Source: a virus
Direction: 5' to 3' (one strand)
UHGV virus genome: UHGV-1343268
DNA: 17,098 nt
The notes below the pieces were generated by a model. The model did not search any database. It had not been told where the DNA came from and saw only the letters and a program-made list of their open reading frames with translations. The first letter of the stretch is position 1. Each line of letters starts with the position of its first letter. Positions 993 through 16,911 of the stretch are shown here, one piece after another. The translations under genes were made by a program, and so were the position numbers.

Positions 993-1133
993 TTACTGCT
1001 TACACTGTAAGAACGCCGCAAACTCCGCTCCCCAGAAGCTCATCCGTATTTCACACAGCGAACCGTGTAGCATCCAGATGATGAGGATTACCGTCACGCA
1101 GAACGTGATGGCTGTAAGCGATTTTTGCGACAT
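993..1133 (-). CDS. hok: Hok/Gef-family type I toxin-like small membrane peptide (46 aa)
   Basis: Manual minus-strand translation from ATG (complement of 1131-1133) to TAA (993-995): MSQKSLTAITFCVTVILIIWMLHGSLCEIRMSFWGAEFAAFLQCKQ. One hydrophobic transmembrane segment followed by SLCEIR and AAF, which match my recollection of the Hok/Gef signature (Hok has KSLCEIR...EVAAF). Below the 60-aa cutoff of the supplied ORF track. Confidence 0.6.
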   Translation of the reverse strand: MSQKSLTAITFCVTVILIIWMLHGSLCEIRMSFWGAEFAAFLQCKQ

Positions 1134-1323
1134 AGCGCTTGCTCCTTTGTTGGAGAGGCGCTAACCTATCACTTGCTTAAGGTAGATATGTTAGGGCCTC
1201 GGTTAAACAGAAATGTTTTCCGGGGCCTTTCCACATCCGGCCTTCGGGTATTCCTCCGACCATCAGCCGAAAGGCACCCGCGGGTAATCTATCGTTTTTT
1301 TGTTACTCCGGCAATTCTGCCTG

Positions 1324-1584
1324 TTAATTCTGAGGTAAAGGCAAACTCATCTGATTGTTTCCCCTGTGTGAAGCTGGCAGCTCATGCCACGGGATACCTT
1401 CCGAAGAGTGAACGCCGGAGGCGTGTTTTGATGTGAATTTATGGAAAGCTTCCAGTGTTGAGAAGCATACGCCGCATTCCAGGTTGTTACACTGGTAATA
1501 CTTTTGCCGCACAGTGTTTGAATCGTTTTCCGGACGACTGGTGCGGATTCGGGCAGATGCGCCACAAAGCGGACAACGGAACAT
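1324..1584 (-). CDS. ogr: Ogr/Delta-family zinc-finger late-gene transcriptional activator
   Basis: N-terminus MFRCPLCGASARIRTSR...YYQCNNLECGVCF has the C-x2-C...C-x4-C arrangement and MF-CPLC start recalled for P2 Ogr. Strong SD (AAGGGAGG) 5 nt upstream of the ATG at 1584. Lies downstream of D as in P2. At 86 aa it is longer than P2 Ogr (72 aa). Confidence 0.8.
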   Translation of the reverse strand: MFRCPLCGASARIRTSRPENDSNTVRQKYYQCNNLECGVCFSTLEAFHKFTSKHASGVHSSEGIPWHELPASHRGNNQMSLPLPQN

Positions 1585-1873
1585 AGCGACCTCCCTTAAC
1601 GTGGTGCTGCCGCTATTCTAAGTTGTAATAGCTCAGACTCCAACTGACAGTTTGCGCAGCCAGAATACAATCAAACCTAGCGGTACGCTTTGTGCGAAGA
1701 GCGGAAGTTCGCAACTCCAACAACTTTGATAACCTCCGCATAAATGGAAATCGGTTGCTTACATAAGTTTATTGGCTGAGGTGCATATCGGGAAGCAAGC
1801 GGGCAGTGCCATCTTATCTGTTACAATCCCGAAATGATTGTTCAGCCCGCTTTTTCTAACAGCATGTAAACAT

Positions 1874-3013
1874 TCAGCTGCAAATTTCGTTGTTGCTGCA
1901 TGTTATCTCTTCAAGTGCAGCGGCGTTATAATCAACGGAATGATCAACCTGTGATGTAGGTATGCCAAAAAATTCAACCCCTGACATAATCATGTTGCCG
2001 ATATTCTCTCGCTGTTTATCACTGAGCCTGTCCCACCACTCAGGGGATGAATATGTATTTTCGGCCTTTGTGAAGAAAAAATACAGAAGGGTATTGAACA
2101 TCCTGTTAGCTGGGATCTTAATTAGTGTCCGTATAAAACGTCTGATAATTGTTGAAGTTCTCAGCCAACTGAACACTACATATCCCTTACCTCCGCAGGA
2201 AAAAGCATTGAAACATACTTGTTCCGCCGACACTGTAAGATCGCTCAAATCCTGAATTTTGGTCCCATCGAAATCCCTCTCCGGTGAAAGAATTGACGAA
2301 ACTACAATTGGTAAAGGCTCTGCAAAAGTGAAGATAACACTTTCAATTTCTGAAAATTGCCTGCTAAGTAGGATGCGGTCGAGGCTAGTTTTAAGATTAT
2401 TTAATTCAATTATTGCTGCATTTAAGCCACTTTGGTGCTGGTCGATTAATTTCTGAATATAATACTGTTCAACTTGTAGCTTTCCTTTATCGGCATTTTT
2501 AGCAAAATCAGAAGATAGCACTCCCCCTTCTTTGGCATAAATTTCTTTAGACAATGAACGAAACATTAAGGCAAAGCACTGCTCGTCCGTGCCTGTAAAT
2601 TTTTCGTTCTCTAGGCATGAAAATAAGATTCTGTCATGAACTGCACAAAATCCTGTAAAAGTGGATGCCTGATTGATACCGATCTTCTCGGGAAGCCATT
2701 TTCCGTTGTTTCTCATCAGGCTTGCTAAGTTCATTATCACCCCCATGACGTGATTGCTGGAGTCGGCGATCGCCTTAAGGCTACTGCTCTTAGATATCGT
2801 ATGCGCCTGAACGATGCGTTTATCACAATCTTCGTGCATGGATGCTGGCGCATAACATGCCTTTCTCTGCGAGAGAGACTTTGAAAATTTCAGTGCCTCG
2901 GCTTTGGATACCGGAGTTTCACGATCTCGACCAAGATGGCACTTTTTATACTTAAGTCCTGAATTACACCAGCACTTATCATTTCTTCCTAATTTCACTT
3001 TATTGTTTCCCAC
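1874..3013 (-). CDS. Cargo protein with N-terminal SEC-C-type zinc-binding motif, function unknown (about 379 aa); candidate accessory or defence gene
   Basis: ORF on the same strand as D and ogr and inserted between them. N-terminus KCWCNSGLKYKKCH matches the SEC-C metal-binding motif (C-x-C-x8-C-H). Markedly AT-rich compared with the flanking phage genes. The annotated start is a GTG with no clear SD; an in-frame GTG five codons downstream (MKLGRND...) is an alternative. The remainder of the protein has no domain I can name. Confidence 0.7.
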   Translation of the reverse strand: MGNNKVKLGRNDKCWCNSGLKYKKCHLGRDRETPVSKAEALKFSKSLSQRKACYAPASMHEDCDKRIVQAHTISKSSSLKAIADSSNHVMGVIMNLASLMRNNGKWLPEKIGINQASTFTGFCAVHDRILFSCLENEKFTGTDEQCFALMFRSLSKEIYAKEGGVLSSDFAKNADKGKLQVEQYYIQKLIDQHQSGLNAAIIELNNLKTSLDRILLSRQFSEIESVIFTFAEPLPIVVSSILSPERDFDGTKIQDLSDLTVSAEQVCFNAFSCGGKGYVVFSWLRTSTIIRRFIRTLIKIPANRMFNTLLYFFFTKAENTYSSPEWWDRLSDKQRENIGNMIMSGVEFFGIPTSQVDHSVDYNAAALEEITCSNNEICS

Positions 3014-3412
3014 GAAATTAATGTTCTATAACAAAAACACTTATCGAAAATAGGTGTAATTTATCACTCCGGCAGCTAAAAGATCATCTGCCACATGCAC
3101 GATAATAAATCTTCCTTGCGTCATCATCTCCCTCTGTTCTTAAATCAGGTGTTGCCTGTGTGCGGAGGATTCGCGAAGTACAGTAGCCGAAATGCATGAT
3201 CTTACCCATCAATGGTGAGCACGCGATAATAAGTGAGTCCCTAATTGACCACTCATGGCAATACAACTTCAACCAGCATTCATGACCACTATCCGTGGAT
3301 TAACTGTTACATAAGCAACACCTGCTCTAGGCACAAAGCGGGCTGCCAGATTGGGTCTGGCACTGTGCTGTGAGTGTGTCAGTTCTGGTTTGAGTCAATA
3401 CATCTAATTTGC

Positions 3413-4513
3413 TCATTCTGTTTCTGCTATCCATTCCGGGATTTTTGCTTCAAGCTCAAGCTGTGTGGTAAAGCCGCTGTTATCAATGGTGTGCTCGGCT
3501 TTTGCAATAATCCAGTCCTGATTATCGATGTCACTTTTGAAGCCTGTCACCGTGCCATGCATTTCGGGATAGAGTTCTGCGCGTCCACGCGCCAGCGTGA
3601 TGGAGAATGATGCGGCTCCGCGTTGTAGCTGCTGCCACTTTGCCGCCGCTGCACGTCTTGCTGCCTGCTCGTTCTGATAAGTCTTGCGTAACACAAACAC
3701 GTTGCCTTCCGCACCTTCCATATAGTCACCTTCACGGCTGCTGCTTTTCTCCTTTTTCGGTTTGCGGCGTTTCACGCTGACTTTTTTCTTTTTCCCGTAA
3801 TTAAGATCAAGCCAGTAAGCACGTACCCCCGTATACGCTTCGCGGTCAGCAATGCGGAACTGATGGCGATCGCCACTGCTGCGCGTGATGGCGAACGATG
3901 GCAACGGCTGGCCCTGTGCGTTCACGCCACCGCCTGGCATGATGAATAACAGATTACTGCTTTTTACCGTAGTGATTGCGCCCAGCATTTCCGCCATGCG
4001 CGTAAGGAAGGACATGTCGCTTTCTTCGGTCTGGTCGGCGTGGTCGATTTCAATATCCATCAGCATTTCGCTGATTTGTGGTTTCAGACCGTACCGATGA
4101 GCGATGGCGGATACCACGCGCTCAACGGTCACATCATGCCAGGACACCTCACGTTTAACGTTAAATTCATCCCGAAAATCTGCGCTTCTGGCTGAAACAG
4201 TCAGCCTGTCCGGCGGTCCTTCGTGAGCGATTTCATCAACAATGTAAGTGCCTTTTTCTGTCAGCGGTTCTCCTTTCCAGCCAATGAGAACCGTCAGGCG
4301 CGCGCCCCGTGGCGGTAGCTGCAACTGACCATCCGCATCATCCAGCGTGATGGTGAGCAGGTCCGCTTCAAATCCCCGGTTGTCGGTCAGTGACAGGCTC
4401 ATCAGGCGCTCTGCCACGCCGGACAGTGTTTCCCCCTCCGCGAGAATATCAAAATCCGGCATTTTCACGGGGTCTGTGCTCTGACTGAGCAATTGCATGG
4501 TGGTATCGGTCAT
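3413..4513 (-). CDS. D: P2 gpD-like tail protein (late control D family)
   Basis: Supplied ORF 3413..4645; the likely start is the internal ATG at 4513 (MTDTTMQLLSQ...) preceded by GGGAGGGA. Length (about 366 aa) and sequence character are consistent with the gpD family; position next to ogr matches P2 synteny. Confidence 0.88.
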   Translation of the reverse strand: MTDTTMQLLSQSTDPVKMPDFDILAEGETLSGVAERLMSLSLTDNRGFEADLLTITLDDADGQLQLPPRGARLTVLIGWKGEPLTEKGTYIVDEIAHEGPPDRLTVSARSADFRDEFNVKREVSWHDVTVERVVSAIAHRYGLKPQISEMLMDIEIDHADQTEESDMSFLTRMAEMLGAITTVKSSNLLFIMPGGGVNAQGQPLPSFAITRSSGDRHQFRIADREAYTGVRAYWLDLNYGKKKKVSVKRRKPKKEKSSSREGDYMEGAEGNVFVLRKTYQNEQAARRAAAAKWQQLQRGAASFSITLARGRAELYPEMHGTVTGFKSDIDNQDWIIAKAEHTIDNSGFTTQLELEAKIPEWIAETE

Positions 4514-4670: not shown

Positions 4671-5855
4671 ATGAGTGAAACTCGTTTTCATGGTGCCCGT
4701 GTTACGGAAAGTACCGACCTGGTAACAGCGATTAATGATGTTGATTCCAGTGTTATCGGTATCGTGGCAACGGCGGATGATGCGGACGCGGAGCTGTTCC
4801 CGCTGAACAAGCCCACACTGCTGACCCGCGTCAATGACGTGCTGGGAAAATGCGGGACTACGGGGACGCTTTATCGTGCGCTTAAGGCTATTGCAGACCA
4901 GGTGAGCACAAAAGTGATCGTCGTTCGCGTGGCTGAACACAAAGAAGAAGGCGGTAAGACGCAGGATCAACTGGTTATCGGTGGTTCTGAATCTGACGGC
5001 AGCTATACGGGGATGTATGCGCTGCTTGTTGCAGAGCAGGATGAAAGCATCGGATACCGTCCGCGTATTCTGGCCGCGCCGGAGCTGGACACGGAGGCGG
5101 TGACAAAATCCCTGTGCGTGATTGCGGGTAAACTGCGCGCGTTTGTGTATGCCTCATGTCATGACTGTAACACGATGGCTGAGGCAATTACCTACCGCCA
5201 GAAATTCAACGAACGTGAGGTGATGCTCTTATGGCCGGACTTCATCGCCTACAACCCGAAAAGTGGCAAAAACGAAACGTTCCCCGCGCCTGCCTATGCG
5301 TGCGGCCTTCGTGCGTACATTGACCATGAGCAGGGCTGGCACAAATCGCTGTCCAACGTTCCTGTTAAAAATGTGCTGGGGATGTCCAGGCATGTTTTCT
5401 GGTCGTTGCAGGCCGAAGACAGTGATGCCAACAGCCTCAACAACAAAGAAATCACGACCATTATTCGTCGCAACGGGTTCCGCTTCTGGGGCAACCGCAC
5501 ACCGGAAACGAACGCCTACATCTTTGAGGTGTATACCCGAACCGCACAGGTGCTGGCTGATTCAATTGCGGAAGCGCAGTTTGAAACCATCGACAGTCCA
5601 CTGACGCCTGCGAACGTGAAGGATGTTATCAGTGCCATCAGGGCAAAACTGGATTCGCTGGTTACTGCCGGGAAACTGATTGGCGCGGAGTGCTGGTATG
5701 ACGTGGTGGATAACAGCACCACGGATTTACGTCAGGGGCGTGTGCGTATTCGCTACAAATATACGCCCGTTCCGCCACTGGAAGACATGGAGCTTTACCA
5801 GACGTTTACTGATGAATACTTTGAACCCGCATTTGCGGTGCTGGGAGGTGCCTGA
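4671..5855 (+). CDS. FI: Contractile tail sheath protein (P2 gpFI-like)
   Basis: 394 aa. Shares recalled gpFI motifs: DADAE-FPLNKP near the N-terminus, LRAF, WPDF, EQGWHK-LSNV, RRNGFRFWGNRT, YTRTAQV, YKYTPVPPLE. SD AAGGGG 8 nt upstream of the ATG. Confidence 0.93.
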   Translation: MSETRFHGARVTESTDLVTAINDVDSSVIGIVATADDADAELFPLNKPTLLTRVNDVLGKCGTTGTLYRALKAIADQVSTKVIVVRVAEHKEEGGKTQDQLVIGGSESDGSYTGMYALLVAEQDESIGYRPRILAAPELDTEAVTKSLCVIAGKLRAFVYASCHDCNTMAEAITYRQKFNEREVMLLWPDFIAYNPKSGKNETFPAPAYACGLRAYIDHEQGWHKSLSNVPVKNVLGMSRHVFWSLQAEDSDANSLNNKEITTIIRRNGFRFWGNRTPETNAYIFEVYTRTAQVLADSIAEAQFETIDSPLTPANVKDVISAIRAKLDSLVTAGKLIGAECWYDVVDNSTTDLRQGRVRIRYKYTPVPPLEDMELYQTFTDEYFEPAFAVLGGA

Positions 5856-6367
5856 TGGCTGTACCAAAACATCTTCGCTTTTTTACGCTGTTTGTGGATG
5901 GTGAAAACGAAGTGGGTAAGGTGACGTCCGTCACTCTGCCTAAGCTGACGCGCAAAACCGACAGCTACCGGGGTGGTGGCATGATGGGTGCGGTAAGTAT
6001 TGATCTCGGTCTGGACGACTCCGCGCTTGATGCGAGCTTTGTCATGGGGGGCGCAGTTCGTGAGCTGTTCCTTAAGTATGGCGGCACGATTGACGGCACG
6101 CTGCTGCGTTTTGCGGGTGAATATTACACCGATGCAGAAAGCGACCTGTATGAAGTCGAAATGCGCGGACGTGTGACGGAAATTGATATGGGGGAAGCCA
6201 AACAGGGCGAAGCCACATCACACACTTACGCCATTAAAAACACCTACTACAAGCTGAGTGTTAACGATCGCCCGTTGTGGGAGATTGACCTGCTGAACTT
6301 CATTTACCGGAAGGACGGCAAGGACATTGTGCCCGATCGCATCCGTTCCGCGCTCGGGCTTGGCTGA
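5855..6367 (+). CDS. FII: Tail tube protein (P2 gpFII-like)
   Basis: 170 aa. Start overlaps the FI stop (TGATG) with GGGAGGTG as SD. Has the LPKLTRK...YRGGGM motif recalled for gpFII. Sits immediately after the sheath gene as in P2. Confidence 0.9.
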   Translation: MAVPKHLRFFTLFVDGENEVGKVTSVTLPKLTRKTDSYRGGGMMGAVSIDLGLDDSALDASFVMGGAVRELFLKYGGTIDGTLLRFAGEYYTDAESDLYEVEMRGRVTEIDMGEAKQGEATSHTYAIKNTYYKLSVNDRPLWEIDLLNFIYRKDGKDIVPDRIRSALGLG

Positions 6368-6421
6368 TAAGTAATATGCAGGCGGCGCAGTGCGTCGCCT
6401 CTGACTGAAAGGAGTTTCCTG

Positions 6422-6787
6422 ATGAAAGAGACGAAAAACATCGATACCGAAAACACGGTAGTTGCTGACACTGTGAAAGAAACCAGTGAGCGTGGTGTAA
6501 AACTTACCCAACCAATTGAGCGAGGCGGCGAAAAAATCACGTATGTGGAGATCACCGGGGCTATTGAGCAGGCTGGATCTCTGCGAGATTTGTCGCTGTC
6601 TGATGTGCTGAATCTGAAAGCGGAATCCATGTTTACGCTGCTGTCACGCGTGACATCACCGCGACTGGATGAAGTGACGATCAAAAAAATGGCATCCCGT
6701 GACTTTATTCAGTTATGTGTGGTTGCCGTAAATTTTTTGAGCGGTGCGGACTCTGGCGGGAAGAACGAACAGGCGACGGAAGCCTGA
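6422..6787 (+). CDS. E: Tail assembly chaperone (P2 gpE-like), zero-frame product
   Basis: 121-aa ORF with SD AAAGGAG, placed between the tube and tape-measure genes. Contains the slippery site TTTTTTG at 6733-6739. Confidence 0.85.
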   Translation: MKETKNIDTENTVVADTVKETSERGVKLTQPIERGGEKITYVEITGAIEQAGSLRDLSLSDVLNLKAESMFTLLSRVTSPRLDEVTIKKMASRDFIQLCVVAVNFLSGADSGGKNEQATEA

Positions 6788-6951
6788 TCACGGTTGTGTG
6801 CTTTGAGCACATAGAAGACTTTGTGGCAGATATTGCCGTTATTTTTAACTGGTCGCCCGCCGAAATCTTCATGATGACGCCCGGCGAAGTGGTTAGCTGG
6901 CGTGAGCGGGCGGCACTTCGCAGCGGGAATGCAGACAATGAAGACTCTTGA
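6422..6951 (+). CDS. E': gpE+E' fusion chaperone made by programmed -1 ribosomal frameshift
   Basis: The overlapping ORF 6715..6951 is in the -1 frame relative to E (start coordinates 6422 and 6715 differ by one in frame) and has no plausible start of its own. The heptamer T6G at 6733-6739 sits in the overlap. This matches the conserved E/E' frameshift of P2 and the analogous lambda G/GT. The E' ORF ends where T begins. Confidence 0.75.
6733..6739 (+). promoter_or_regulatory. Slippery heptamer TTTTTTG for the -1 programmed frameshift E to E'
   Basis: Seen in sequence, in the E/E' overlap with the correct frame relationship. Confidence 0.7.
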
Positions 6952-9745
6952 TATCCGGGTCGCTTTCAGCGCCGTTGACAGGCTGACCCGGCCTGCCGAA
7001 AACGCCCGCCGCCTGATGGGGCAGTTTGGTGACTCCATCCAGCGAACGCAGGGGGCGATTAAAAATCTCGAGCGTCAGGCTCGTTCATTTGAGCGCGCCC
7101 GCGACGCTGTCAGTAAAGCGGATGCGGGTATCGTGAAAGCACGACGCCAGCTTAACGCCCTTAATCAGTTACAACGCACGGGTACAGTGCTCAGCGAAAA
7201 ACAACAAAAGCTGATGCAGCAGTTAAGCACCCGGCTTGAACGCCTGAATGAATCGCGCACACGGGAAATTCAGAAAATGCGGGAGCTTGGCGGAGAGCTG
7301 AAACGCCACGGCATTTCCCTGACAGGCAGCGATAACACCATCCAGCAGGCCATCAGACGCACCGAACAGTACAACAACCAGCTTGAACGCGAACGGCAGG
7401 CGCTTGCGCGTGTAACGCGGGCGCGTGAGTGGTATTCGCGCGCGCAGGAAACCGCGGGAAAACTGAAAACAGGTGGTGCGCTGGCAATTGGTGCGGCAGC
7501 GGCGGGCGGCTATGCTGCCGGGCGTTTTTTGCAGCCCGCGATCGGGTTCGGCAAAGAGATGTCCCGCGTTCAGGCGCTGACGCGAATCGACCAGAACAGC
7601 CCGCAGTTTAAGGCGCTGCGTGAGCAGGCGTTAAAACTTGGCTCTGAAACGCAGTTCACCGCAGGCGATGCCGCCAGTGGGCAGGCATTTCTTGCAATGG
7701 CAGGCTTCACACCGCAGGCCATTCAGGCTGCGCTTCCCGGAGTGCTGAGCATGGCAACGGCTGGCGGTATGGATCTCGGCGAGACGGCAGATATTGGCTC
7801 AAATATCCTGACGCAGTTCGGCCTTTCTGCTGACCAGATGGACCGGGTCGGTGACACACTCACCGCAGCGTTTACCCGTACCAACACTGACCTTCGCGCA
7901 CTGGGCGAAACCATGAAATATGCAGGTCCGGTGGCGGGTAAGCTGGGAATATCGCTGGAGCAGGCCGCAGCGATGGCTGGTGTGCTGGCGAATATGGGCA
8001 TCAGAGGGAGTGATGCCGGGACGGCAATGCGTGCCAGCCTGGCTCGTCTGGCATCACCGCCAAAGGCGGCGGCAGAAGCTCTGAAAGAGCTGGGCGTGTC
8101 CGTCTCGGATGCCGGGGGTAAAATGCGCCCGATGGAGGATGTGCTGGCCGACCTTTATAAAGCCACCCGCAAATACGGGGAAGTTGACCGGGTATCGTTC
8201 TTTAAGGACATTGCCGGAGAAGAGGCTTTCACATCGTTTATGGCGCTCGTTGATGCAGTGGGTGACGGTTCCTTACCCAAACTGAGAAAAGAACTTGAAG
8301 GCGCGCGCGGTGAGGCTGAACGCACAGCAAAGGTTATGGCCAACAACCTTGACGGCGATCTGAAATCACTCGGCAGTGCATGGGAAGGGTTGCGCATCCG
8401 CATTGCAGATCTGATTGACGGTCCGCTGCGTTCTGTCACGCAGTGGCTCACGCGGGTGGTATCAAGGGTGACGGCGCTGGCGCAGGCCCATCCGGCACTG
8501 ACGCGCCAGCTACTGATAGCAGGCGGTGCGTTGCTGGCAATGACTGCAACGGTTGGCTCGTTGTCGCTGGCTATTGGTGTGCTTGCTGGTCCGCTGGCAA
8601 AACTGCGTCTTGGTTTTTCTCTCCTGACCGGATCAATGAATGCTGTCAGGGTCCTGCCAGCACTATGGGGAATGGTGACGGGTTCCGTTTCTTTACTGGG
8701 AGGCGCTATCGGGGCGCTGTTCAGTCCGGTTGGTCTTATCGTGGCTGCGCTTGCCGGAGCTGCCGTCCTTATCTGGAAATACTGGGATCCCATCAGGGCA
8801 TTTTTTGCCGGGGTGTTCAGCGGGATTATGGAAAGGCTGAACCCGTTGCGTGAAACCTTTGAACGGTTTGGCCCTGTTTTTGACGCAATCGGAAGCGGGA
8901 TCAGCCAGGTGTTTAACTGGTTTAAATCGCTGCTGTCACCGATGGAGTCCAGCAAGGAAACGCTGGATAAATGTACCAGTGCTGGCGAGATATTCGGTAA
9001 CGTTCTTGGCGGTGCGTTACAACTTGTTCTGACACCTGCAAAAATGCTACTGGATACGCTGGCGTGGATACTTGAAAAACTTGGCGTCCTTCCGGATGAA
9101 GCGGAAAGGGCGCGCAAGAAAATCGAAGACGCACAGCGTGCGGCCATTCTTCAGGATAAGGTTGCCTTACTTCAGGGGGACCTGGCGAAAATCAATCCGC
9201 CGAAGCCTGTGGAAAATGGCAATGGCACCGGAGGTGATAAACCCAAAGACAACAAACCGCTCACAGACAGCAATACCGGGACGCTACGCAGACTCAGCAA
9301 AATTGCTGATAACACAGGTAAGCTGGTTGATGAGACGAAAAAACGCATTGGCCCTGGCGATATTGTCTTTAAGAACCTGCCCCGCGCACTTGCTGTTCGT
9401 GGGGAGTGGCAGGAGCGGAAGATTGCGCAGGTCAGTAAGCCTGCCCCCGCAATTAATATCACACCCGTAGTCCCGGCTCCGCTGCCTCCGGCGCTGGTCC
9501 CTGTTGTTGCGGCCAGCTCCCGCCCGGTGGCGGAGGCCATACGATCGCCAGTGGCATCAGTTCCTGCAGCTTCCCGTAATCGGGAGCCTGCTGTCTCCAG
9601 ATTTGGCGGTGAAATTCATGTTCATCTGCATAACGTTGTTACGCAGAATCCCCGCGAACTGGCGAAACTGGTCGGTGAAATGGTCAGGGCAGAAATGGAA
9701 CGGCGCGCCCGTGCCGGGCGTGGCAGTTTTTACGATAAAGATTGA
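6938..9745 (+). CDS. T: Tail tape measure protein (P2 gpT-like)
   Basis: Very long ORF (supplied as 6902..9745, 947 aa). Coiled-coil-rich N-terminal half, hydrophobic Gly/Ala-rich segments in the middle, located directly after E/E'. Start is uncertain among GTG 6902, ATG 6929 and ATG 6938; 6938 is chosen because GGGA lies about 9 nt upstream. Confidence 0.9.
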   Translation: MKTLDIRVAFSAVDRLTRPAENARRLMGQFGDSIQRTQGAIKNLERQARSFERARDAVSKADAGIVKARRQLNALNQLQRTGTVLSEKQQKLMQQLSTRLERLNESRTREIQKMRELGGELKRHGISLTGSDNTIQQAIRRTEQYNNQLERERQALARVTRAREWYSRAQETAGKLKTGGALAIGAAAAGGYAAGRFLQPAIGFGKEMSRVQALTRIDQNSPQFKALREQALKLGSETQFTAGDAASGQAFLAMAGFTPQAIQAALPGVLSMATAGGMDLGETADIGSNILTQFGLSADQMDRVGDTLTAAFTRTNTDLRALGETMKYAGPVAGKLGISLEQAAAMAGVLANMGIRGSDAGTAMRASLARLASPPKAAAEALKELGVSVSDAGGKMRPMEDVLADLYKATRKYGEVDRVSFFKDIAGEEAFTSFMALVDAVGDGSLPKLRKELEGARGEAERTAKVMANNLDGDLKSLGSAWEGLRIRIADLIDGPLRSVTQWLTRVVSRVTALAQAHPALTRQLLIAGGALLAMTATVGSLSLAIGVLAGPLAKLRLGFSLLTGSMNAVRVLPALWGMVTGSVSLLGGAIGALFSPVGLIVAALAGAAVLIWKYWDPIRAFFAGVFSGIMERLNPLRETFERFGPVFDAIGSGISQVFNWFKSLLSPMESSKETLDKCTSAGEIFGNVLGGALQLVLTPAKMLLDTLAWILEKLGVLPDEAERARKKIEDAQRAAILQDKVALLQGDLAKINPPKPVENGNGTGGDKPKDNKPLTDSNTGTLRRLSKIADNTGKLVDETKKRIGPGDIVFKNLPRALAVRGEWQERKIAQVSKPAPAINITPVVPAPLPPALVPVVAASSRPVAEAIRSPVASVPAASRNREPAVSRFGGEIHVHLHNVVTQNPRELAKLVGEMVRAEMERRARAGRGSFYDKD

Positions 9746-9751
9746 GGAGTC

Positions 9752-10246
9752 ATGGCCATGATGATGATCTACGGCATGTTTGTTTTTGAGCTGCGCACGT
9801 TGCCGCATCAGCAGTTACAGCAAAATAAAAGCTGGCGGCATGTGAAAAATGAACGCGTTAACCGTTCAGCAAGCTGGCAGTATATCGGGGCAGGCGATGA
9901 TCGCATCGTTCTTTCTGGTGTGCTTTATCCTGAAATTACAGGTGGCGAAGTGTCGCTTTCGTTGCTGACCACGCAGGCATATACAGGACGCCCCTGGCCT
10001 CTGATTGATGGTGTCGGGCAGATTTACGGCATGTATGTACTGACTGAAACGAATACGACCCGCTCCGAGTTTGATCGCTACGGTAAGGCGAAAAAGATAG
10101 AATTTTCACTGACTCTTGAACGCTGTGATGAGGATTTGCGGGAGCGCCTGCAATCCTCATCGTTCAGCGATATGTTGTCCGGCTTCAAAGATAAGGTGAC
10201 ATCATCCCTTAATAGCGCGGCCAGCTCAGTTAAGGGGCTGCTCTGA
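9752..10246 (+). CDS. U: Tail protein U (P2 gpU-like)
   Basis: 164 aa, SD GAGGAG, immediately downstream of T. Size and position match P2 gpU. Confidence 0.82.
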   Translation: MAMMMIYGMFVFELRTLPHQQLQQNKSWRHVKNERVNRSASWQYIGAGDDRIVLSGVLYPEITGGEVSLSLLTTQAYTGRPWPLIDGVGQIYGMYVLTETNTTRSEFDRYGKAKKIEFSLTLERCDEDLRERLQSSSFSDMLSGFKDKVTSSLNSAASSVKGLL

Positions 10247-10351: not shown

Positions 10352-10402
10352 CTCTTAACCTTATAACATGTGTGGTCTGAAATAATAATTAAGGAGATTA
10401 TC

Positions 10403-10975
10403 GTGCTGTCTTACCTAATGGCAATTCACTTTGTTTTATTTGGGAACTCTACTAATTTAAAAAACTTCTGGAAACATGAAGTAATTCGGCGGAAACGTAT
10501 GGATATCTGGAGGCTTTTAAGAGAGAAAAAGCAGCGTAACAGGAATTTCCTTTTCTGGTGGCGGTTGGCTAACGAAATGTATATTAATGGTAATAAATTA
10601 CATAAGAAAGCAGCCAAGAAGTTAAACAGTAAAATAATTAACAAATTTGGTTGCGAAATTGGATTGGGCGCAAATATTGGAAAAGGGTTAACAATTCCCC
10701 ATCATGCTGGAATTGTTGTTCATTTTGCTGTTGATGCTGGTGAAAATCTGGTGTTACGACAGAATACGACCATTGGACAGATAGATGGTGACATACCTGG
10801 TTCAAGAGTAAAAATTGGTAGCAACGTTGATATCGGAGCTAATTGTTGCATCATTGGATTATCCCGTAAAATTGGGGATAATGTAAAAATAGGTGCAATG
10901 TCTTTTATAAATAAAGATATACCATCGAACTGCACATATATAACTAAAAAGAGCGGTGCTGTATTGTATAAATAG
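10403..10975 (+). CDS. Hexapeptide-repeat acyltransferase, serine-O-acetyltransferase (CysE/WcaB)-like; cargo gene
   Basis: The C-terminal half carries repeated [LIV]-G-x-x-x-x hexapeptide units (IGLGANIGKGLTI, KIGSNVDIGANCCIIG, KIGDNVKIGAMSFI) resembling the left-handed beta-helix of CysE-type acetyltransferases. Strongly AT-rich. SD AAGGAG (10391-10396) precedes an in-frame GTG at 10403; the ATG at 10418 is an alternative start. The supplied ORF begins at GTG 10370. Confidence 0.78.
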   Translation: MLSYLMAIHFVLFGNSTNLKNFWKHEVIRRKRMDIWRLLREKKQRNRNFLFWWRLANEMYINGNKLHKKAAKKLNSKIINKFGCEIGLGANIGKGLTIPHHAGIVVHFAVDAGENLVLRQNTTIGQIDGDIPGSRVKIGSNVDIGANCCIIGLSRKIGDNVKIGAMSFINKDIPSNCTYITKKSGAVLYK

Positions 10976-10984
10976 AGTACATAA

Positions 10985-11020
10985 AGCCATCGATATTTCT
11001 ATCGATGGCTTTTTCTTTTT
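10985..11020. terminator. Strong intrinsic terminator between the convergent acetyltransferase and tfa genes
   Basis: Perfect 11-bp stem AGCCATCGATA (10985-10995) / TATCGATGGCT (11000-11010), loop TTTC, then TTTTCTTTTT. The T-run overlaps the tfa stop codon. Confidence 0.75.
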
Positions 11021-11597
11021 ATTGTGGGGCGACTGGCCACTCAATATCTGCTGCTACTGTTGTATCAACACGATGCAACAATACTCGATATGTCTTCCAT
11101 GCAGCCAGTAACGATGTCTCTTCCTCCGTCGCAATATCTAAATCTATAGCATCCTGAAGTGGTGCAATATGCTCACTGGCTACCTGCATCAGGCTGTTTT
11201 TTGTTTCTTCCGCCTCCCTTATCCGAAATAGTTTTTCTGCTTCTGCATCTTTCACCCAGGATGTGCCGTTCCACTTCTGATACTCTCCATACGGCGACAA
11301 CCAGGTAACATTTTCCGGTAATGGACCGAGTTCAGAAATAAATAACGAGTCCCCTGATGCCACGTCATAAACCGTTTTACCCCGATGGTCTTCAACGAGA
11401 TGCCACGATGCCTCATCACTGTTGAAAACGGCCACGAAGCCAGCCGGAATATCTGGCGGGGCAATATCGGTACTGTTTGCAGGCAGACCTGTATGAGGTG
11501 GAATGTATGCATCACCTTCACCAATAAACTCATTGGTTCCGGTCAGTAGATTATAAATTTTTATGGTCCGTGAGTGTTCACTCATTCTGAATGTCAT
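11019..11597 (-). CDS. tfa: Tail fibre assembly chaperone (lambda Tfa / P2 gpG class)
   Basis: 192 aa. C-terminal [30 protein letters not shown] resembles the conserved Tfa C-terminus. The start ATG overlaps the tail-fibre stop (TAATG), indicating translational coupling. Confidence 0.85.
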
Positions 11598-13916
11598 TAT
11601 GCAAGCCTCACAATATAGTTAAATGCGATGTTTTTTACGGTGTTTTCTTTGTTACCCGTAGCGTTAACGGTGATGGTGTGTCCGTGGGGACCAATAATGA
11701 CAGAATGGGCATGAGCACCAATGCCGATAGTGTGGTTATGGGCACCGATATATACATTGTGAGCATGCCCGCCTGCGCTCGACGTGGTACCAGTACCTAA
11801 CGCAGCGTTATAACCGGCTGATACACCATTCCCCGCGCCAGTGTGACCAACAGGTATATTGTGTGAATGATTTCCAGCGCTATTCGTAGTTTTTGTGCCG
11901 TAATCAAATGAACTGGTCGTTTTAGTACCGTAATCAAACGACGATGTGGTTTTCGTCCCCAAATCCGTACTGGATGCGCTGGCGCTGTGGGTGTGCGATT
12001 TAATGCCGTCCTGTTCCTGAGACAATACGGCACGACCACTGCCGGGCTTGCCCTTAATCGTCCAGCCACGCATATCAGGAATAACGCCTGACGGATAAGC
12101 GACTGCAAGTTTCGGGTATGCAGATTTGTCAAAAGTCTGCCCCTGCATCAGGGCATAGCCAGACGGAACGGTATCTGATGGCCACGGGATTGGTGCACCG
12201 ACTGGATAAAACTCTGCAGGAGGATGAGCCGAGGTGTAAAGCTGCGCCCACGGCGACCAGTTTGCGTCGGTCGTATCCCGTCGTGAACGAATAAATGCCG
12301 GAGCATGAGCACCGCTTGTACCACTCCAGCCGATGAGTAACTCACCTTCGCCAACGGCTGTCATCCCTTTCAGGTGAATGATATTTCCATACGCTGTTGG
12401 ATATCCGTTGTTATACACCTCGTATAACTCAAGACCTGTTGCCCCCTGCGTATTGTCTGTCAGCGCGGTTACCCGACCTTTTGAAGACAGATTAACTGAT
12501 GATACTGCTGTTCCACCTGACGGTAATGCCCCGATCTCTGATGCCGTTGGCTTATTTCTGGAGTTATAGTCCCTTCGCCAGCCAGGTGAATAATCTGNNN
12601 NNNNNNNNNNNNNNNNNNNNNNNNNNNNNNNNNNNNNNNNNNNNNNNNNNNNNNNNNNNNAATGCGGATCGTCATCGCTGACTTTATCCCCATTACTTCA
12701 ATGACAGCTCCTGCGAGATGAATATTACCGCAGCCAGTATCAGTAATGATTTTATTATTGCCATAAGACCAGGAACCCTTGCACATCCAGTATGGATGGT
12801 TAAATGCTCCCTGAGAATCCAGCCACTCGATAAACTGTGCAGTCGTCCAGTCTCCTGTTGTTGTGCTTACTGACCCACCGAAGGCACGGCTGGCACCAAT
12901 ATTTTTCGTAAAGGTGTCTTTGCCAGGGATATCCGCACCGTTCTTATCTTTCTGCAGACGTTTCTCAGCATTGTCATTGGCTGCTTTTACTGCCTTTGGC
13001 GTTGCTGCCAGCGTTTCAGACGTGCTGTTGGTCGCGCTGCTTAGCTGGACTATCCCTTTCTGTGCTGTCGTTGCATCCTGTGCGGTGTATTTCCCGTCAG
13101 CCAGGTCATACGCGGCCTTAACTGCTTTTGGCGTTGCCGCCAGCGTTTCAGACGTGCTGTTGGTCGCGCTGCTTAGCTGGACTATCCCTTTCTGTGCTGT
13201 CGTTGCATCCTGTGCGGTGTATTTCCCGTCAGCCAGGTCATACGCGGCCTTAACTGCTTTTGGCGTTGCCGCCAGCGTTTCAGANNNNNNNNNNCAGCCA
13301 GGTCATACGCGGCCTTAACTGCTTTTGGCGTTGCCGCCAGCGTTTCAGAATCGCTGTTAGTGGCGCTACTGAGTTGAACAAAGCCTTTTGCGGTCAGCGA
13401 GGCATCCGGGTGACATCGTGACTGTTCATGCTCTTTCAGTTTGTTATCCACGTAATCCACTGTGGCCATCACCATGGTGTTATCCACGGTAAGCGCCACA
13501 GTGGCAGTGCTGGATACGGTCAGAATGGTGCGAAATGTTTGTGCACGTCCGGACCCTTCGGCAACGGCTGGCTTGTAACTTTCGGCAGTATTGCCCACCG
13601 CGATTAAATCGCCGTGCTCATCAAACACACCAATTTCCCGGATCCAGAATCCGCCCGTTTCTGGAGGAATAACCAGCTCCGCAATAATGCGGTTCTGATG
13701 TGTTGCGTCCAGGATGACGCGATTAACAGTGTGTCGCCACACCTCATGCACCAGACGGGTCTGCTTACTGTCTGGTGTGGGCAACGCGCCGCCACCGTCG
13801 CCCACGGCCATATGAGTCAGGCGGACAGGCTTACCATCTGGCGCGGCTGCCTGAGCTAATTTTTTGGCACCTGTATCGGTGATAACGGTTTTAAATTTTC
13901 GTGTTGTGGTACTCAT
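11597..13916 (-). CDS. H: Mosaic tail fibre protein (P2 gpH-like N-terminus, lambda Stf-like C-terminus); interrupted by two N-runs
   Basis: N-terminal ORF (13916 downward) [24 protein letters not shown]...HEVWRH...[15 protein letters not shown]...[13 protein letters not shown]...[20 protein letters not shown] matches the gpH N-terminal baseplate-attachment region as I recall it. C-terminal segment ...[34 protein letters not shown]...HxH repeats...[11 protein letters not shown] matches the lambda Stf-type tip. By manual translation the frame is continuous from the 12598-12660 gap to the stop at 11597. True length and frame across the gaps cannot be determined. Confidence 0.82.
12598..12660. 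other. Run of 63 ambiguous bases (N), assembly gap or masked segment inside the tail fibre gene
   Basis: Seen in sequence. Confidence 0.95.
12981..13400. repeat. Tandem 132-bp direct repeats (44-aa coding units) inside the tail fibre gene
   Basis: Units 13021-13152 and 13153-13284 appear identical on reading. Diverged partial copies flank them (about 12981-13020 and 13295-13400). The 10-N run at 13285-13294 replaces roughly 77 nt of a unit. On the coding strand the unit encodes ...[44 protein letters not shown]... Confidence 0.9.
13285..13294. other. Run of 10 ambiguous bases (N) inside the tandem-repeat array, probably a collapsed-repeat gap
   Basis: Seen in sequence; the flanking sequence shows repeat phase is not preserved across the N-run. 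Confidence 0.95.
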
Positions 13917-13918
13917 GC

Positions 13919-14449
13919 TTAATCGTCCGGATAAATGGTAATAACTTCACCGTCATGAGTTGCCGCCGCTGCAAAAATATCCCCCGGAATTTCCTGAATG
14001 ATATTCAGCCCTGTCATGTGGCGGCTGACCGGACGGGCATCAGCAATCAACCGCTCCATTTCCAGATACATTTCCTCCGTCACGCCACTGTCCAGTGTGC
14101 CGACTTCAACGGTAAATGTTCCCGGTTCTCCGCCGAACTCCCACCACTCAGACACGCGAATGAGGTATCCCAGCGGCTCAATGGCCCTGCGCAGTGCGCT
14201 GATGGTCCCTTTGTGTCGGTGTGTCAGCCATGCATCACGAATCACCTGTCGTTTTGTCTCTTCCGGCCAGTTGCGATCCCAGCGGTCAACGGAAAATGCC
14301 CAGGCGAGATAAGGCAGCAGGTGCACCGGGCAGGTGTCCGGCGACCACAGCGTGTTGAGGTCTACCGGGATGTCTGTAATGCGCGTTCCGACAGCTTCGG
14401 CACAACGCATGAAACTGCTGGCTGATGGTGGTAACAGTGAATTACTCAT
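13919..14449 (-). CDS. I: Baseplate protein (P2 gpI-like)
   Basis: Supplied ORF 13919..14482; the likely start is the internal ATG at 14449 (MSNSLLPPSASSFMRC...), which overlaps the J stop (AATGAGTAA). Motifs LW-PDTCP and LPYLAWAFSVDRWD match recalled gpI. Sits between J and H as in P2. Confidence 0.88.
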   Translation of the reverse strand: MSNSLLPPSASSFMRCAEAVGTRITDIPVDLNTLWSPDTCPVHLLPYLAWAFSVDRWDRNWPEETKRQVIRDAWLTHRHKGTISALRRAIEPLGYLIRVSEWWEFGGEPGTFTVEVGTLDSGVTEEMYLEMERLIADARPVSRHMTGLNIIQEIPGDIFAAAATHDGEVITIYPDD

Positions 14450-15338
14450 TGCGCCCACCTTCGCTGATGGTGAACGACTCACAGCGCGCCGCCTGTATGT
14501 CGCTGATGGCCATATTCTGTGTGGGTTCGATTATCTCCACGCGTTGCACACCGTGCACATGCAGTGCGGCAGCAATGGCGGACAACGCCACGTCCTGACC
14601 GATAAGCCCCTGCTCAGCCAGCCACTTCCTGAACGACGATTCAGCCGCCGCCAGAATAGGTTCGGATTCCGGGCCGGGGTAAAAGTACAGTTTTGCATTC
14701 AGCCGCCATGTCACGATTCTGGCGCTCTGTACCGTCAGGCGGTCGGCCACCGGGCGGGTATCCTCTGCATTCAGAACGGCGCGAACGGTATTAAGCAACG
14801 CCTCCGTTGCTGTGCCGTCGCCTTCAGTGGACAGGATGGAAACCGTCACATTTGCCGGAGACGGACTGATAGCCCGCGCATCACGCACCAGACCGCTGGC
14901 GCTGCGGGCAAAATACTCGTATGCACCTGACGGGCCAGCAACACTCAGGCCATCGTACGCCCGCTGCGCCCGCAGTCTCAGCGATGTGTCGCTTTCCATC
15001 ACCGCGTCGGTGGTATCCGTTGCCGGAGTGATAACCAGGCGCTTTGTGTTCATATTGCCCGCGAGGTTGTCCAGGTCTGTCCCGGTGCTGTGGCTTAACA
15101 TGCAGGCGCGTGCACCCTCATTGACCCGCTGGCGTAACAGCATTTCACGAAACGCTGTTGTCTGGGCGATAACGTTCAGGGGTTCCGATTCCAGCTCCAG
15201 CGCGGCGGAGACGGCTTCACGCTGTTCGGCAGGATAGGACGCAATCATCATGGCCTTTGTGTCAGCCAGAATTGCCTCAAAATCAGGCTTCGCGATGATG
15301 GCGGGTTCCGGTAACTGGGAAAGGTCAACAGCAGGCAT
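14442..15338 (-). CDS. J: Baseplate assembly protein J (P2 gpJ-like)
   Basis: 298 aa, between W and I, size as expected for gpJ. Assignment rests mainly on synteny and size. Confidence 0.88.
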   Translation of the reverse strand: MPAVDLSQLPEPAIIAKPDFEAILADTKAMMIASYPAEQREAVSAALELESEPLNVIAQTTAFREMLLRQRVNEGARACMLSHSTGTDLDNLAGNMNTKRLVITPATDTTDAVMESDTSLRLRAQRAYDGLSVAGPSGAYEYFARSASGLVRDARAISPSPANVTVSILSTEGDGTATEALLNTVRAVLNAEDTRPVADRLTVQSARIVTWRLNAKLYFYPGPESEPILAAAESSFRKWLAEQGLIGQDVALSAIAAALHVHGVQRVEIIEPTQNMAISDIQAARCESFTISEGGRNE

Positions 15339-15341
15339 GAT

Positions 15342-15692
15342 TTACTCCCTCAGCGTGATGGTTAACTCAACATTCTGCATGGTCTGCATGACAGTGCCCG
15401 ACAGCGTCACCCCGGCGCGGCCTCCCGCTTTCCAGACAACGTCGATGGCATCCAGGGCAATGCGGGGTTCCCATCGTGTCAGCGCAATCACGGCAGCACT
15501 CATGCATTGCAGACGCGTGGTGTTATTCATGGGTTCGTCAATCAAATCAGGCACAAGGCTGCCATATTCCCGTCGCATAACCCGGCTGGCCAGCGGGGTG
15601 GTCAGGATGTCCCTGACTGACTGTTTCAGGTGCTCCGTATCGTTCAGGTTTCCCGTCCCGTCCGGATTCATTCCTGTGTAGCGGGTTGTCAC
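15342..15692 (-). CDS. W: Baseplate wedge protein W (P2 gpW / T4 gp25-like)
   Basis: 116 aa, size and position (V then W then J) as in P2. Start overlaps the V stop (ATGA). Confidence 0.85.
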   Translation of the reverse strand: MTTRYTGMNPDGTGNLNDTEHLKQSVRDILTTPLASRVMRREYGSLVPDLIDEPMNNTTRLQCMSAAVIALTRWEPRIALDAIDVVWKAGGRAGVTLSGTVMQTMQNVELTITLRE

Positions 15693-16270
15693 TGCGGGCC
15701 TCCTGTCGAATCGCTGCCACCTTTAACGCCACCGTGTTTATGCGTATGCACTGTGATACCGTTTGAGGTGAAATTGCCGCCGCTGTGCGTGATATTGCCG
15801 CTCATCTTTCCCCCTTTTGTGACGTCAAGCGTCGCCGTTCTCAGAAGGTTTGTGCATTCCACGACGGGCGTATCCAGTTTCACGCTGACGGATGCCTGCA
15901 GGCTGGCTGTTTTCATGCCGCTGGCGCTCAGTGCGCCAGCGTCTGCGTCGTAGCGGAACACCGCGCCGTCCGGTGCGGTGATCACGATTTCTTTCAGGCT
16001 TTTGCCGGGGGCCGGACTGGCATCACTCCACAGACTGCCAATTATCATGGCGGTTTCCGGGTTGCCGCCAATGCAGGCAATTACCACCTGTTCGCCTGGT
16101 GATGGCGGTAGCCACACATTGAAGGCTCCCGCGCGCGTGGTGTTCCAGCGCAGCCAGCCTGTTTCCAGTTCGCCGCTGCGAACGCGCACGCGCCAGGACT
16201 TCTCATCAACTTCAGAGATGATCCCGGTGCGGATGATGTTGCTCAGCAGTCGCATGAGTTCTGCGCTCAC
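15689..16270 (-). CDS. V: Baseplate spike / assembly protein V (P2 gpV-like)
   Basis: 193 aa with a Gly-rich C-terminus; lies upstream of W. Start overlaps the stop of the preceding gene. Confidence 0.85.
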   Translation of the reverse strand: MSAELMRLLSNIIRTGIISEVDEKSWRVRVRSGELETGWLRWNTTRAGAFNVWLPPSPGEQVVIACIGGNPETAMIIGSLWSDASPAPGKSLKEIVITAPDGAVFRYDADAGALSASGMKTASLQASVSVKLDTPVVECTNLLRTATLDVTKGGKMSGNITHSGGNFTSNGITVHTHKHGGVKGGSDSTGGPQ

Positions 16271-16911
16271 CGTACAGCCTCCGCAATCCGGCCCAGCACC
16301 GTGTTATAAATCAGGCGCTCATCTGCCTGGCTGATACCCAGCAGCTCACGTACCGGGTAATCGGTGAAAATGCCCGGCGCAACCTGATCGCGCTCACCGA
16401 ACTGATGAACGCGTGCAATACGTGCGGCCACGCCGCTGTAACCCACCGTCACACCGGAAGCATCTGCACGGGCTTTCAGGTAGCGGGCGGTGCGCAGTTT
16501 TACGAACATGGGGACGCGCCTGGTGCTGTCCTGGTTGATGCGCTGGGTGCGTATTTCCAGAAAACGGTCAATGTCATCCCGGTAAAACGTGCGGATATTG
16601 TTTTTATCCTCATCCCACCCGGTAATGGTTCGCCCGTATTTCCCCGTGTCGTGATGCCAGTTTTTCAGCGTGCGTGCTTCGTTATTCCAGATAAAGCGAA
16701 TGCGCTCCTGTATCCGGGTTACGCGGCGTCTGCGTGGTGTCCATTCGGTCCCGTCCGGCGCTTTTTGTGACCGGATACGTGCCTGCTGGGCGCGACGTAA
16801 ATCCTGTGCCAGCTTTCTGGCGATGTTATTGATGGCCTGCTGATTCAGGCTGTCGCGGATAGCCTCAAAGGTTTCATCCACGCGGGTGAATGCCTTATCC
16901 ATCGCTTTCAC
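16267..16911 (-). CDS. S: Virion morphogenesis / tail completion protein (gpS-like)
   Basis: 214-aa ORF immediately upstream of V on the same strand, the position of P2 S. Start is GTG at 16911 or ATG at 16902 (GGGG about 8 nt upstream). Assignment rests mainly on synteny; it is larger than P2 gpS (about 150 aa). Confidence 0.55.
   Translation of the reverse strand: MKAMDKAFTRVDETFEAIRDSLNQQAINNIARKLAQDLRRAQQARIRSQKAPDGTEWTPRRRRVTRIQERIRFIWNNEARTLKNWHHDTGKYGRTITGWDEDKNNIRTFYRDDIDRFLEIRTQRINQDSTRRVPMFVKLRTARYLKARADASGVTVGYSGVAARIARVHQFGERDQVAPGIFTDYPVRELLGISQADERLIYNTVLGRIAEAVR

Follow-up and report, generated by a model that had tools for sequence, protein, structure and literature searches.

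An inverted-repeat cassette in the D–ogr interval of a P2-like prophage, carrying a probable enterobacterial member of the Rugutis anti-phage family

What is a piece of AT-rich DNA with one large gene doing between two conserved late genes of a P2-like prophage? The question is raised by the virus genome UHGV-1343268, in which positions 1585–3412 of the window (the whole analysed stretch of 17,098 nucleotides) separate ogr (1324–1584, minus strand) from gene D (3413–4513, minus strand). The best explanation of the whole locus, which we consider quite probable, is that a discrete moron cassette, bounded by inverted repeats, has been inserted into the D–ogr interval to give this island, and that its single gene is an enterobacterial member of the Rugutis family and a probable defence protein.

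A preliminary description, made from the letters of the window, had proposed an AT-rich island at this position, holding one large open reading frame (ORF) with an N-terminal SEC-C motif, and both points hold. The GC content is 0.425 for 1585–3412 and 0.531 for the rest of the phage, which places the island about two standard deviations below the mean of equal-sized phage windows; the only other stretch of the phage that is comparably AT-rich is a second cargo region at ~10.4–12.6 kb. The ORF occupies 1874–3013 on the minus strand and encodes 379 residues from a GTG start at 3013. Its GC content is 0.412, and that of its third codon positions (GC3) is 0.41 against 0.56–0.60 in the tail genes, so that it differs from the flanking phage genes in composition, third codon positions included, a contrast that the preliminary description had put forward as a check. 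Alignment with the empty allele of Escherichia coli UMNK88 (locus L004), in which 42 bp lie between the D stop and the ogr start, defines the inserted DNA as 1626–3402, or 1,777 bp.

A tblastn search of plasmids with the island protein led to NZ_PP589699.1 (pUCCL633A), in which the match is annotated as a ‘SEC-C domain-containing protein’ of 359 residues. This Lactococcus plasmid is the source of Rugutis, a family described in 2024–2025 (Grafakou et al., 2024 NAR; 2025 PNAS); Rugutis itself is pUCCL633_059, a protein of 359 residues with a SEC-C motif (PMC11381338). The comparator was taken as Rugutis by strain and plasmid name, length and motif. BLASTP aligned the two proteins over 358 columns, nearly their full length, at 26% identity (E = 3e-37), and a profile-to-sequence comparison with hhalign gave a probability of 100% (E = 2.9e-45) over 322 aligned columns. 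Because both similarities are essentially full-length, we assign the island protein to the Rugutis family. On these sequence grounds, its gene is best described as an enterobacterial, prophage-borne member of this recently defined anti-phage family, and the earlier view of a protein with no recognised relative or function can no longer be maintained.

Both proteins have an N-terminal SEC-C motif and a body of ~360 residues that resembles no solved structure, and each is encoded as a single-gene unit on a mobile element. They differ in that Rugutis is borne on a Lactococcus plasmid, whereas the island gene lies on a P2-like prophage in a Gram-negative host, inside an inverted-repeat cassette. 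In the island protein, the SEC-C motif (Pfam PF02810; 34.4 bits, cut-off 20.4) spans residues 10–27, RNDKCWCNSGLKYKKCHL, encoded at 2933–2986 on the minus strand, and resembles two C-terminal peptides of SecA, 1ozb and 1sx0; in Rugutis it spans residues 8–26 (27.3 bits). The zinc knuckle reads C-x-C...C-C in Rugutis and C-x-C...C-H in the island protein. In Pfam, NCBIfam, PHROGs and PADLOC, this motif was the sole recognised part of the query and of 40 diverse relatives, and the predicted fold (predicted local distance difference test score 88) had no significant neighbour among the solved structures of the PDB, as published for Rugutis. The system models of PADLOC-DB v2 gave motif-level matches of only ~25 residues (E2, E1-E2 and PDC-S12). 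A distant kinship to DUF4238 or HNH proteins, suspected from the motifs AH(T/S)I...GFCxxHD, was rejected for want of Pfam, NCBIfam or PADLOC support in the query and the 40 diverse members; no profile or fold match was found to the beta-beta-alpha-metal motif of HNH/His-Me fingers with its catalytic His and Asn/His. Rugutis is missing from PADLOC and DefenseFinder (a 2026 paper), which explains why the island protein looks like an orphan to standard tools.

The family is large. A word-indexed search returned 297 matches, and an exhaustive profile search found 7,337 representative clusters with E ≤ 0.001, of which 1,480 were left at E ≤ 1e-30. Matches to ‘Listeria phage’ in tblastn were to unverified contigs and were not relied on. 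When contigs were scanned with a profile of the family alignment, the scan keyed on SEC-C, and three of 80 loci were true relatives, nearly all others being unrelated SEC-C proteins; gene contexts were drawn from exact-protein contig look-ups instead.

The possibility that the gene is a pseudogene in related prophages, raised in the preliminary description, is not borne out. The whole region including the island is present in 80 E. coli genomes, and in each of these the gene is annotated as a coding sequence, among the matches listed; the 90% cluster of the protein contains 419 member sequences. Four enterobacterial orthologs, those of the window prophage, of an integrative island in Salmonella, of a second island in E. 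coli and of the Pantoea chromosome, were compared over 371 codons without gaps and gave ratios of nonsynonymous to synonymous substitution (dN/dS) of 0.13–0.22. These ratios indicate that the island gene is under purifying selection and functional. The start codon GTG at 3013 is conserved in the four genomic contexts; an alternative GTG at 2998 is not.

The neighbouring genes differ in all eight contexts examined, with one conserved ORF in the cassette; there is therefore no conserved partner gene, and the organisation is that of a single-gene system. Several times these contexts are mobile or rich in defence genes. The Salmonella ortholog (86% identity) lies on the S. Typhimurium contig AAJPNL010000026.1 (locus L009, 5726–15694) between an integrase gene and genes for AlpA and a DUF927 primase, and it adjoins an AAA_15/AAA_21 and DUF4435 gene pair, which we take to be of PARIS type. 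This pairing is tabulated for PARIS (PMC11381338). The arrangement suggests that the Salmonella locus is a satellite-like defence island. A relative in Klebsiella aerogenes is found at the edge of a prophage, and one in Pseudomonas near a zeta toxin and an integrase. The island gene itself occurs in many Shiga-toxin-producing E. coli (STEC), including O26, O103, O111 and some O157 strains.

The position of the island is equally informative. The preliminary description had suggested that the D–ogr interval might be a recurrent variable slot, and a comparison across E. coli bears this out. The D–ogr region was matched in 1,468 of 5,426 complete E. coli genomes, the 80 with the island included. 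Forty of the matching records were sampled at even intervals; ~29 had both flanks, and in 17 of these the slot was empty. Other records carried a 500-residue PIN protein, a 304-residue TIR/SEFIR protein (PADLOC bSEFIR, E = 1.4e-44), a 389-residue DUF3800 protein, a 340-residue protein with a weak RiboL-PSP HEPN match, uncharacterised proteins of 221 and 384 residues, or an insertion sequence (IS) element. Every insert other than the IS element is a single gene, on either strand. Across E. coli, the slot occurs either empty or with one of at least seven cargos, each a single gene and unrelated to the others; the SEFIR-type gene among them is a known defence gene. Polymorphism of this kind is the hallmark of a hotspot for defence or accessory genes; whether D–ogr counts as a ‘new’ slot is uncertain. 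Slot polymorphism and homology to the validated Rugutis system together support the earlier proposal of a single-gene cargo with a probable anti-phage function.

A different reading of the same gene, which we consider unlikely, is that it serves a toxic, addiction or lysogenic-conversion function unrelated to phage defence, or that it belongs to the family but has lost its anti-phage activity in Enterobacteria. Activity in E. coli is argued from homology, at an identity to Rugutis of only 26%; the cargos of the P2 Z region in AJ512681.1 are annotated only as ‘putative lysogenic conversion proteins’, and a hok/sok addiction module lies nearby. However, all family-invariant residues are kept, purifying selection is strong, the slot and the neighbourhoods of the orthologs are enriched for defence-type genes, and the closest relative to have been characterised acts in defence.

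We return to the probable Rugutis-family defence gene and to the DNA that carries it. Homology among the four gene contexts reaches past the ORF and, in the second E. coli island (locus L094, 6792–8431), covers the whole 1.78 kb. In both the window and L094, terminal and subterminal inverted repeats lie exactly at the island limits; in the window, 1621–1649 pairs with 3377–3405 (terminal, 29 nt) and 1674–1709 with 3317–3352 (subterminal, 36 nt). The two ends form terminal inverted repeats of ~90 bp, one downstream of the cargo gene (1618–1713, plus strand; nhmmer E = 8e-23, this end having been used in building the model) and one upstream of it (3312–3408, minus strand; E = 1.3e-22). They are bordered by a target duplication of 7–9 bp, present as one copy per end in the occupied site, TCTAAGTTG at 1617–1625 and TCTAATTTG at 3403–3411 adjoining the D stop codon, and as a single copy in the empty allele. 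The L094 copy is flanked by the 6-bp repeat GATAGC; a search turned up no empty site for it.

Seven ends from four loci align over ~90 bp, with the consensus TGTATTAGCTCAGA...CTGACA...AATCTGACAG...GTGCC..AGCGGAAGTTGC. A profile of these ends detected paired, inward-facing copies around the Z/fun–orf30 region of phage P2 (locus L106 3496–5245, corresponding to P2 15359–17108) and around the ‘Z-region’ of P2-EC48, with nhmmer E values of 1e-12 to 1e-17 on these two genomes, neither of which was used in model building. Paired ends also enclose an unrelated 331-residue gene adjoining the integrase of a lambdoid prophage, a 515-residue gene adjoining the integrase of a Shiga toxin 2c (Stx2c) phage, the Z slot of phage 899 and, as a complete cassette, a helix-turn-helix (HTH) gene on a Salmonella IncFIB plasmid. 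Besides the window, L094 and L106, the loci concerned are L104 (2327–4093), L105, L108 (4997–5878), L110 (3694–5679) and L111 (3495–6826); other D–ogr alleles have weaker ends. With the consensus end, blastn matched 796 plasmid records, 497 of them from Klebsiella, and 112 phage records, Klebsiella dominating the single-end matches. The cassette end is single-copy per genome, for which reason a high-copy miniature inverted-repeat transposable element was rejected. Inspection of two plasmid copies revealed no autonomous version with a transposase in their vicinity. The repeats themselves are not new, since GenBank AJ512681.1 already annotates a ‘left/right inverted repeat’ in the P2-EC48 Z-region; what may be new is that they occur at D–ogr, that they enclose a Rugutis-like gene, and that Stx phages and plasmids have them too.

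Terminal repeats and a target duplication in a cassette without a recognisable transposase invite the alternative that the island protein is itself the mobility enzyme, a transposase or recombinase, and its conserved metal-binding-type core and a fold without known match would suit such a role. We regard this as very improbable. The same end family encloses unrelated cargos (P2 Z/fun and the 331-residue, 515-residue and HTH proteins), other alleles of the D–ogr slot carry PIN, TIR and DUF3800 genes, and most family members lack these repeats, with nhmmer finding no ends in loci L009–L011, L097–L098 or the Lactococcus plasmid. There is just as little chance that the protein is a cytoplasmic metal-binding protein of YecA type, serving the Sec pathway or the ribosome as a housekeeping-like accessory, as its RefSeq name ‘YecA family protein’ and the SEC-C matches to SecA, YecA and YchJ peptides might imply. 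Domain content effectively refutes it. The similarity spans only ~20 residues; the NCBIfam YecA-type model PRK10396, whose cut-off is 149 bits, reaches 17.9 bits and matches only with its C-terminal motif; the motif is N-terminal in the island protein, and no other Pfam domain is present. The gene is also patchy, AT-rich and on mobile elements. The RefSeq name, resting only on the 20-residue motif, is a misnomer, and the clear homology to a housekeeping protein that would have spoken against a cargo function was not found.

With the island protein taken as cargo, the ends can tentatively be read as marking a family of small mobile cassettes that hold one or two genes, are not autonomous and would depend for movement on an enzyme acting in trans. 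Such cassettes would shuttle single-gene defence and other accessory genes between fixed points in P2-like phages (G–FI and D–ogr), sites adjoining int in lambdoid and Stx phages, and enterobacterial plasmids, the Rugutis-like gene being one passenger. We hold this wider proposal to be possible, with the balance somewhat against it.

The preliminary description had also suggested that the DNA on either side of the ORF could hold a promoter or additional small elements, and this stands in part. The flanks consist mainly of the ~90-bp ends plus a conserved leader and contain no further genes; a 62-residue ORF at 3084–3272 was rejected as a gene, not being conserved in the three other contexts. 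A block at 3245–3320 (minus strand) upstream of the gene is kept in all four contexts and is a candidate promoter or leader; L094 has lost part of the DNA that separates this block from the start codon. A scan for promoter and terminator consensus sequences gave nothing above the shuffled background and nothing upstream of the island gene, and an Rfam scan of 1200–3700 found no family within the island, its only results being a partial sok match outside it and chance-level matches.

How might the protein work? Alignment of the family, including Rugutis and relatives that lack SEC-C, leaves ten invariant columns (C53, C63, H71, L79, C123, H126, D127, F131, E135 and R152), and S117, T118, F119, G121, F122, Q145, D247, E318 and N319 are nearly invariant in the same alignment. 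The conserved core spans residues 53–152 (2558–2857, minus strand). In the predicted model, H71 sits at the end of a strand, and C123-x-x-H126-D127 opens a helix that follows a beta-hairpin. C53, C63, C123 and H126 may form a second, structural zinc site, and H71, D127, E135 and R152 a catalytic-type cluster beside it; read in this way, the effector would most likely be a metal-dependent enzyme, possibly a nuclease. Searches of nuclease families and folds gave no match. The SEC-C-less relatives occur on plasmids of Klebsiella (pKPN5; hhalign probability 99.8%), Bradyrhizobium and Staphylococcus, and their alignment indicates that they define the minimal conserved core. Since some members do without it, the zinc knuckle is an accessory module, and in the island protein it may serve in docking or regulation. 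The pKPN5 relative is encoded at 2992–4134 of locus L100 (Klebsiella pneumoniae MGH 78578), the others in L101 and L102; one of the SEC-C-less plasmid relatives stands beside a P-loop NTPase and another beside a DUF262 protein.

Work on the Lactococcus protein provides a possible course of events. Rugutis is a single-gene system that lowers plaquing by lactococcal phages and is active after DNA injection. It behaves like an abortive-infection (Abi) system, with protection at low multiplicity of infection and collapse or stasis at high multiplicity. Phage c2 escapes it by mutations in the large terminase's ATPase domain, and c2 terminase, when expressed, shows greater toxicity in cells with Rugutis than in controls (PMC12184496). 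We infer that the E. coli protein would behave in the same manner. It would probably be made in the lysogen and remain inactive up to the late stage of a superinfecting phage; the large terminase of that phage would then switch it on, directly or indirectly, and the activated protein would stop the cell before progeny are released.

Several points weigh against this reading. The terminase of escape mutants retains toxicity in Rugutis cells, which leaves the terminase-trigger model incomplete and unsettled, and Rugutis was assayed from a high-copy vector. Because the island protein has only 26% identity to the tested protein and resides in a Gram-negative host, its specificity, or even its activity, may differ. 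A terminase-sensing system on a phage with its own terminase also needs an explanation of self-avoidance. Finally, no promoter was identified for the island gene in the consensus scan.

Comparison with known systems places the locus more precisely. As in P2 Z/fun and the Z-region inserts of P2-like phages (Nilsson et al., 2004; AJ512681.1), the ~90-bp end family flanks AT-rich cargo between conserved late genes; the site there is G–FI rather than D–ogr, and the cargo is another. P2 old/tin and the P4 hotspots (Rousset et al., 2022) share the principle that a locus flanked by conserved phage genes varies and takes up interchangeable anti-phage systems, most of them single genes. They occupy different genome positions, and the D–ogr slot and a Rugutis-like cargo are not mentioned in Rousset et al. 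(2022). A functional analogy to Avs is possible, PMC12184496 drawing the parallel that large terminase activates both Avs and Rugutis; however, no sequence or fold relationship was detected between Avs and the island protein, which has no STAND ATPase, and direct recognition of terminase by Rugutis is unproven. With SecA, YecA and YchJ, the island protein shares the zinc knuckle of ~20 residues (PF02810) and differs in all else; the motif, N-terminal here, is dispensable in the superfamily.

As to the surrounding prophage, E. coli chromosomes match the window at 99–100% identity. In the O26:H11 strain 11368, the start of the window follows directly on the glyW–cysT–leuZ transfer RNA (tRNA) cluster and continues into a P2-like prophage, so that the island-bearing element adjoins a tRNA-Leu gene. 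The gene order is hok/sok, ogr (minus strand), the SEC-C ORF (minus), D (minus), FI, FII, E, T and U (plus), an acetyltransferase gene (plus), and G, H, I, J, W and V (minus). The left flank of the slot, ogr, encodes the late-gene activator (Pfam Ogr_Delta, 52.4 bits; RefSeq ogr/Delta-like zinc finger protein); the right flank, D, encodes the tail or baseplate hub (Pfam Phage_GPD; phrog_52 of PHROGs, E = 1.7e-163) and is a 366-residue coding sequence in RefSeq, its longest ORF extending to 4645. Compared with the P2 gene order, the FI–FII–E–T–U tail operon (4671–10246) is inverted in place relative to 3413–4513 and 11019–16911. Because of this inversion, D and ogr are transcribed divergently from FI, and U faces the tail-fibre genes. 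D and ogr are nonetheless neighbours in the empty alleles; the P2-like adjacency assumed in the preliminary description therefore holds, and the picture differs in one detail, the divergence of the two genes from FI in this lineage. D adjoins FI in each record containing both genes, among the matches listed from the 1,468 genomes.

Some further features of the prophage were observed. On the minus strand upstream of ogr (1617–1650), the cassette end supplies the hexamer TTGGAG, 17 nt upstream of the TAGAAT that precedes ogr, in cargo-bearing alleles, and the empty allele has no comparable –35 element ahead of ogr; insertion of the cassette may therefore change ogr transcription. A hok/sok-type toxin–antitoxin module (~993–1280, minus strand; Hok/Gef protein in RefSeq) lies between ogr and the prophage end, and the Rfam sok match near ogr is partial (28.6 bits), being cut off by the search boundary. 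The tail-fibre gene H (11597–13916, minus strand) is split into at least three ORFs, and 12594–13295 has no homology to the intact 710-residue H gene of O26:H11 strain 11368; the prophage may be defective or mosaic at its receptor-binding region. A second AT-rich cargo gene (10370–10975, plus strand; GC3 0.33), a serine O-acetyltransferase in RefSeq, lies between U and the tail-fibre assembly gene, and profile search found no inverted-repeat ends of the island type around it.

The identification gives a functional lead for a gene, found in many STEC, that PADLOC and DefenseFinder do not see and whose product is misnamed a ‘YecA family protein’. It extends the large Rugutis family from Gram-positive plasmids to enterobacterial prophages and satellite-like islands, with a core of Cys, His, Asp, Glu and Arg residues that is directly mutable, and documents D–ogr as a further variable defence slot of P2-like prophages. 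The shared ends tie this slot to P2 Z/fun and to cassettes of Stx phages and plasmids, and could help to explain how defence genes are exchanged. If the cassettes do move in trans, this would account in physical terms for the reported ‘swapping’ of defence genes at the P2 and P4 hotspots, which is very fast.

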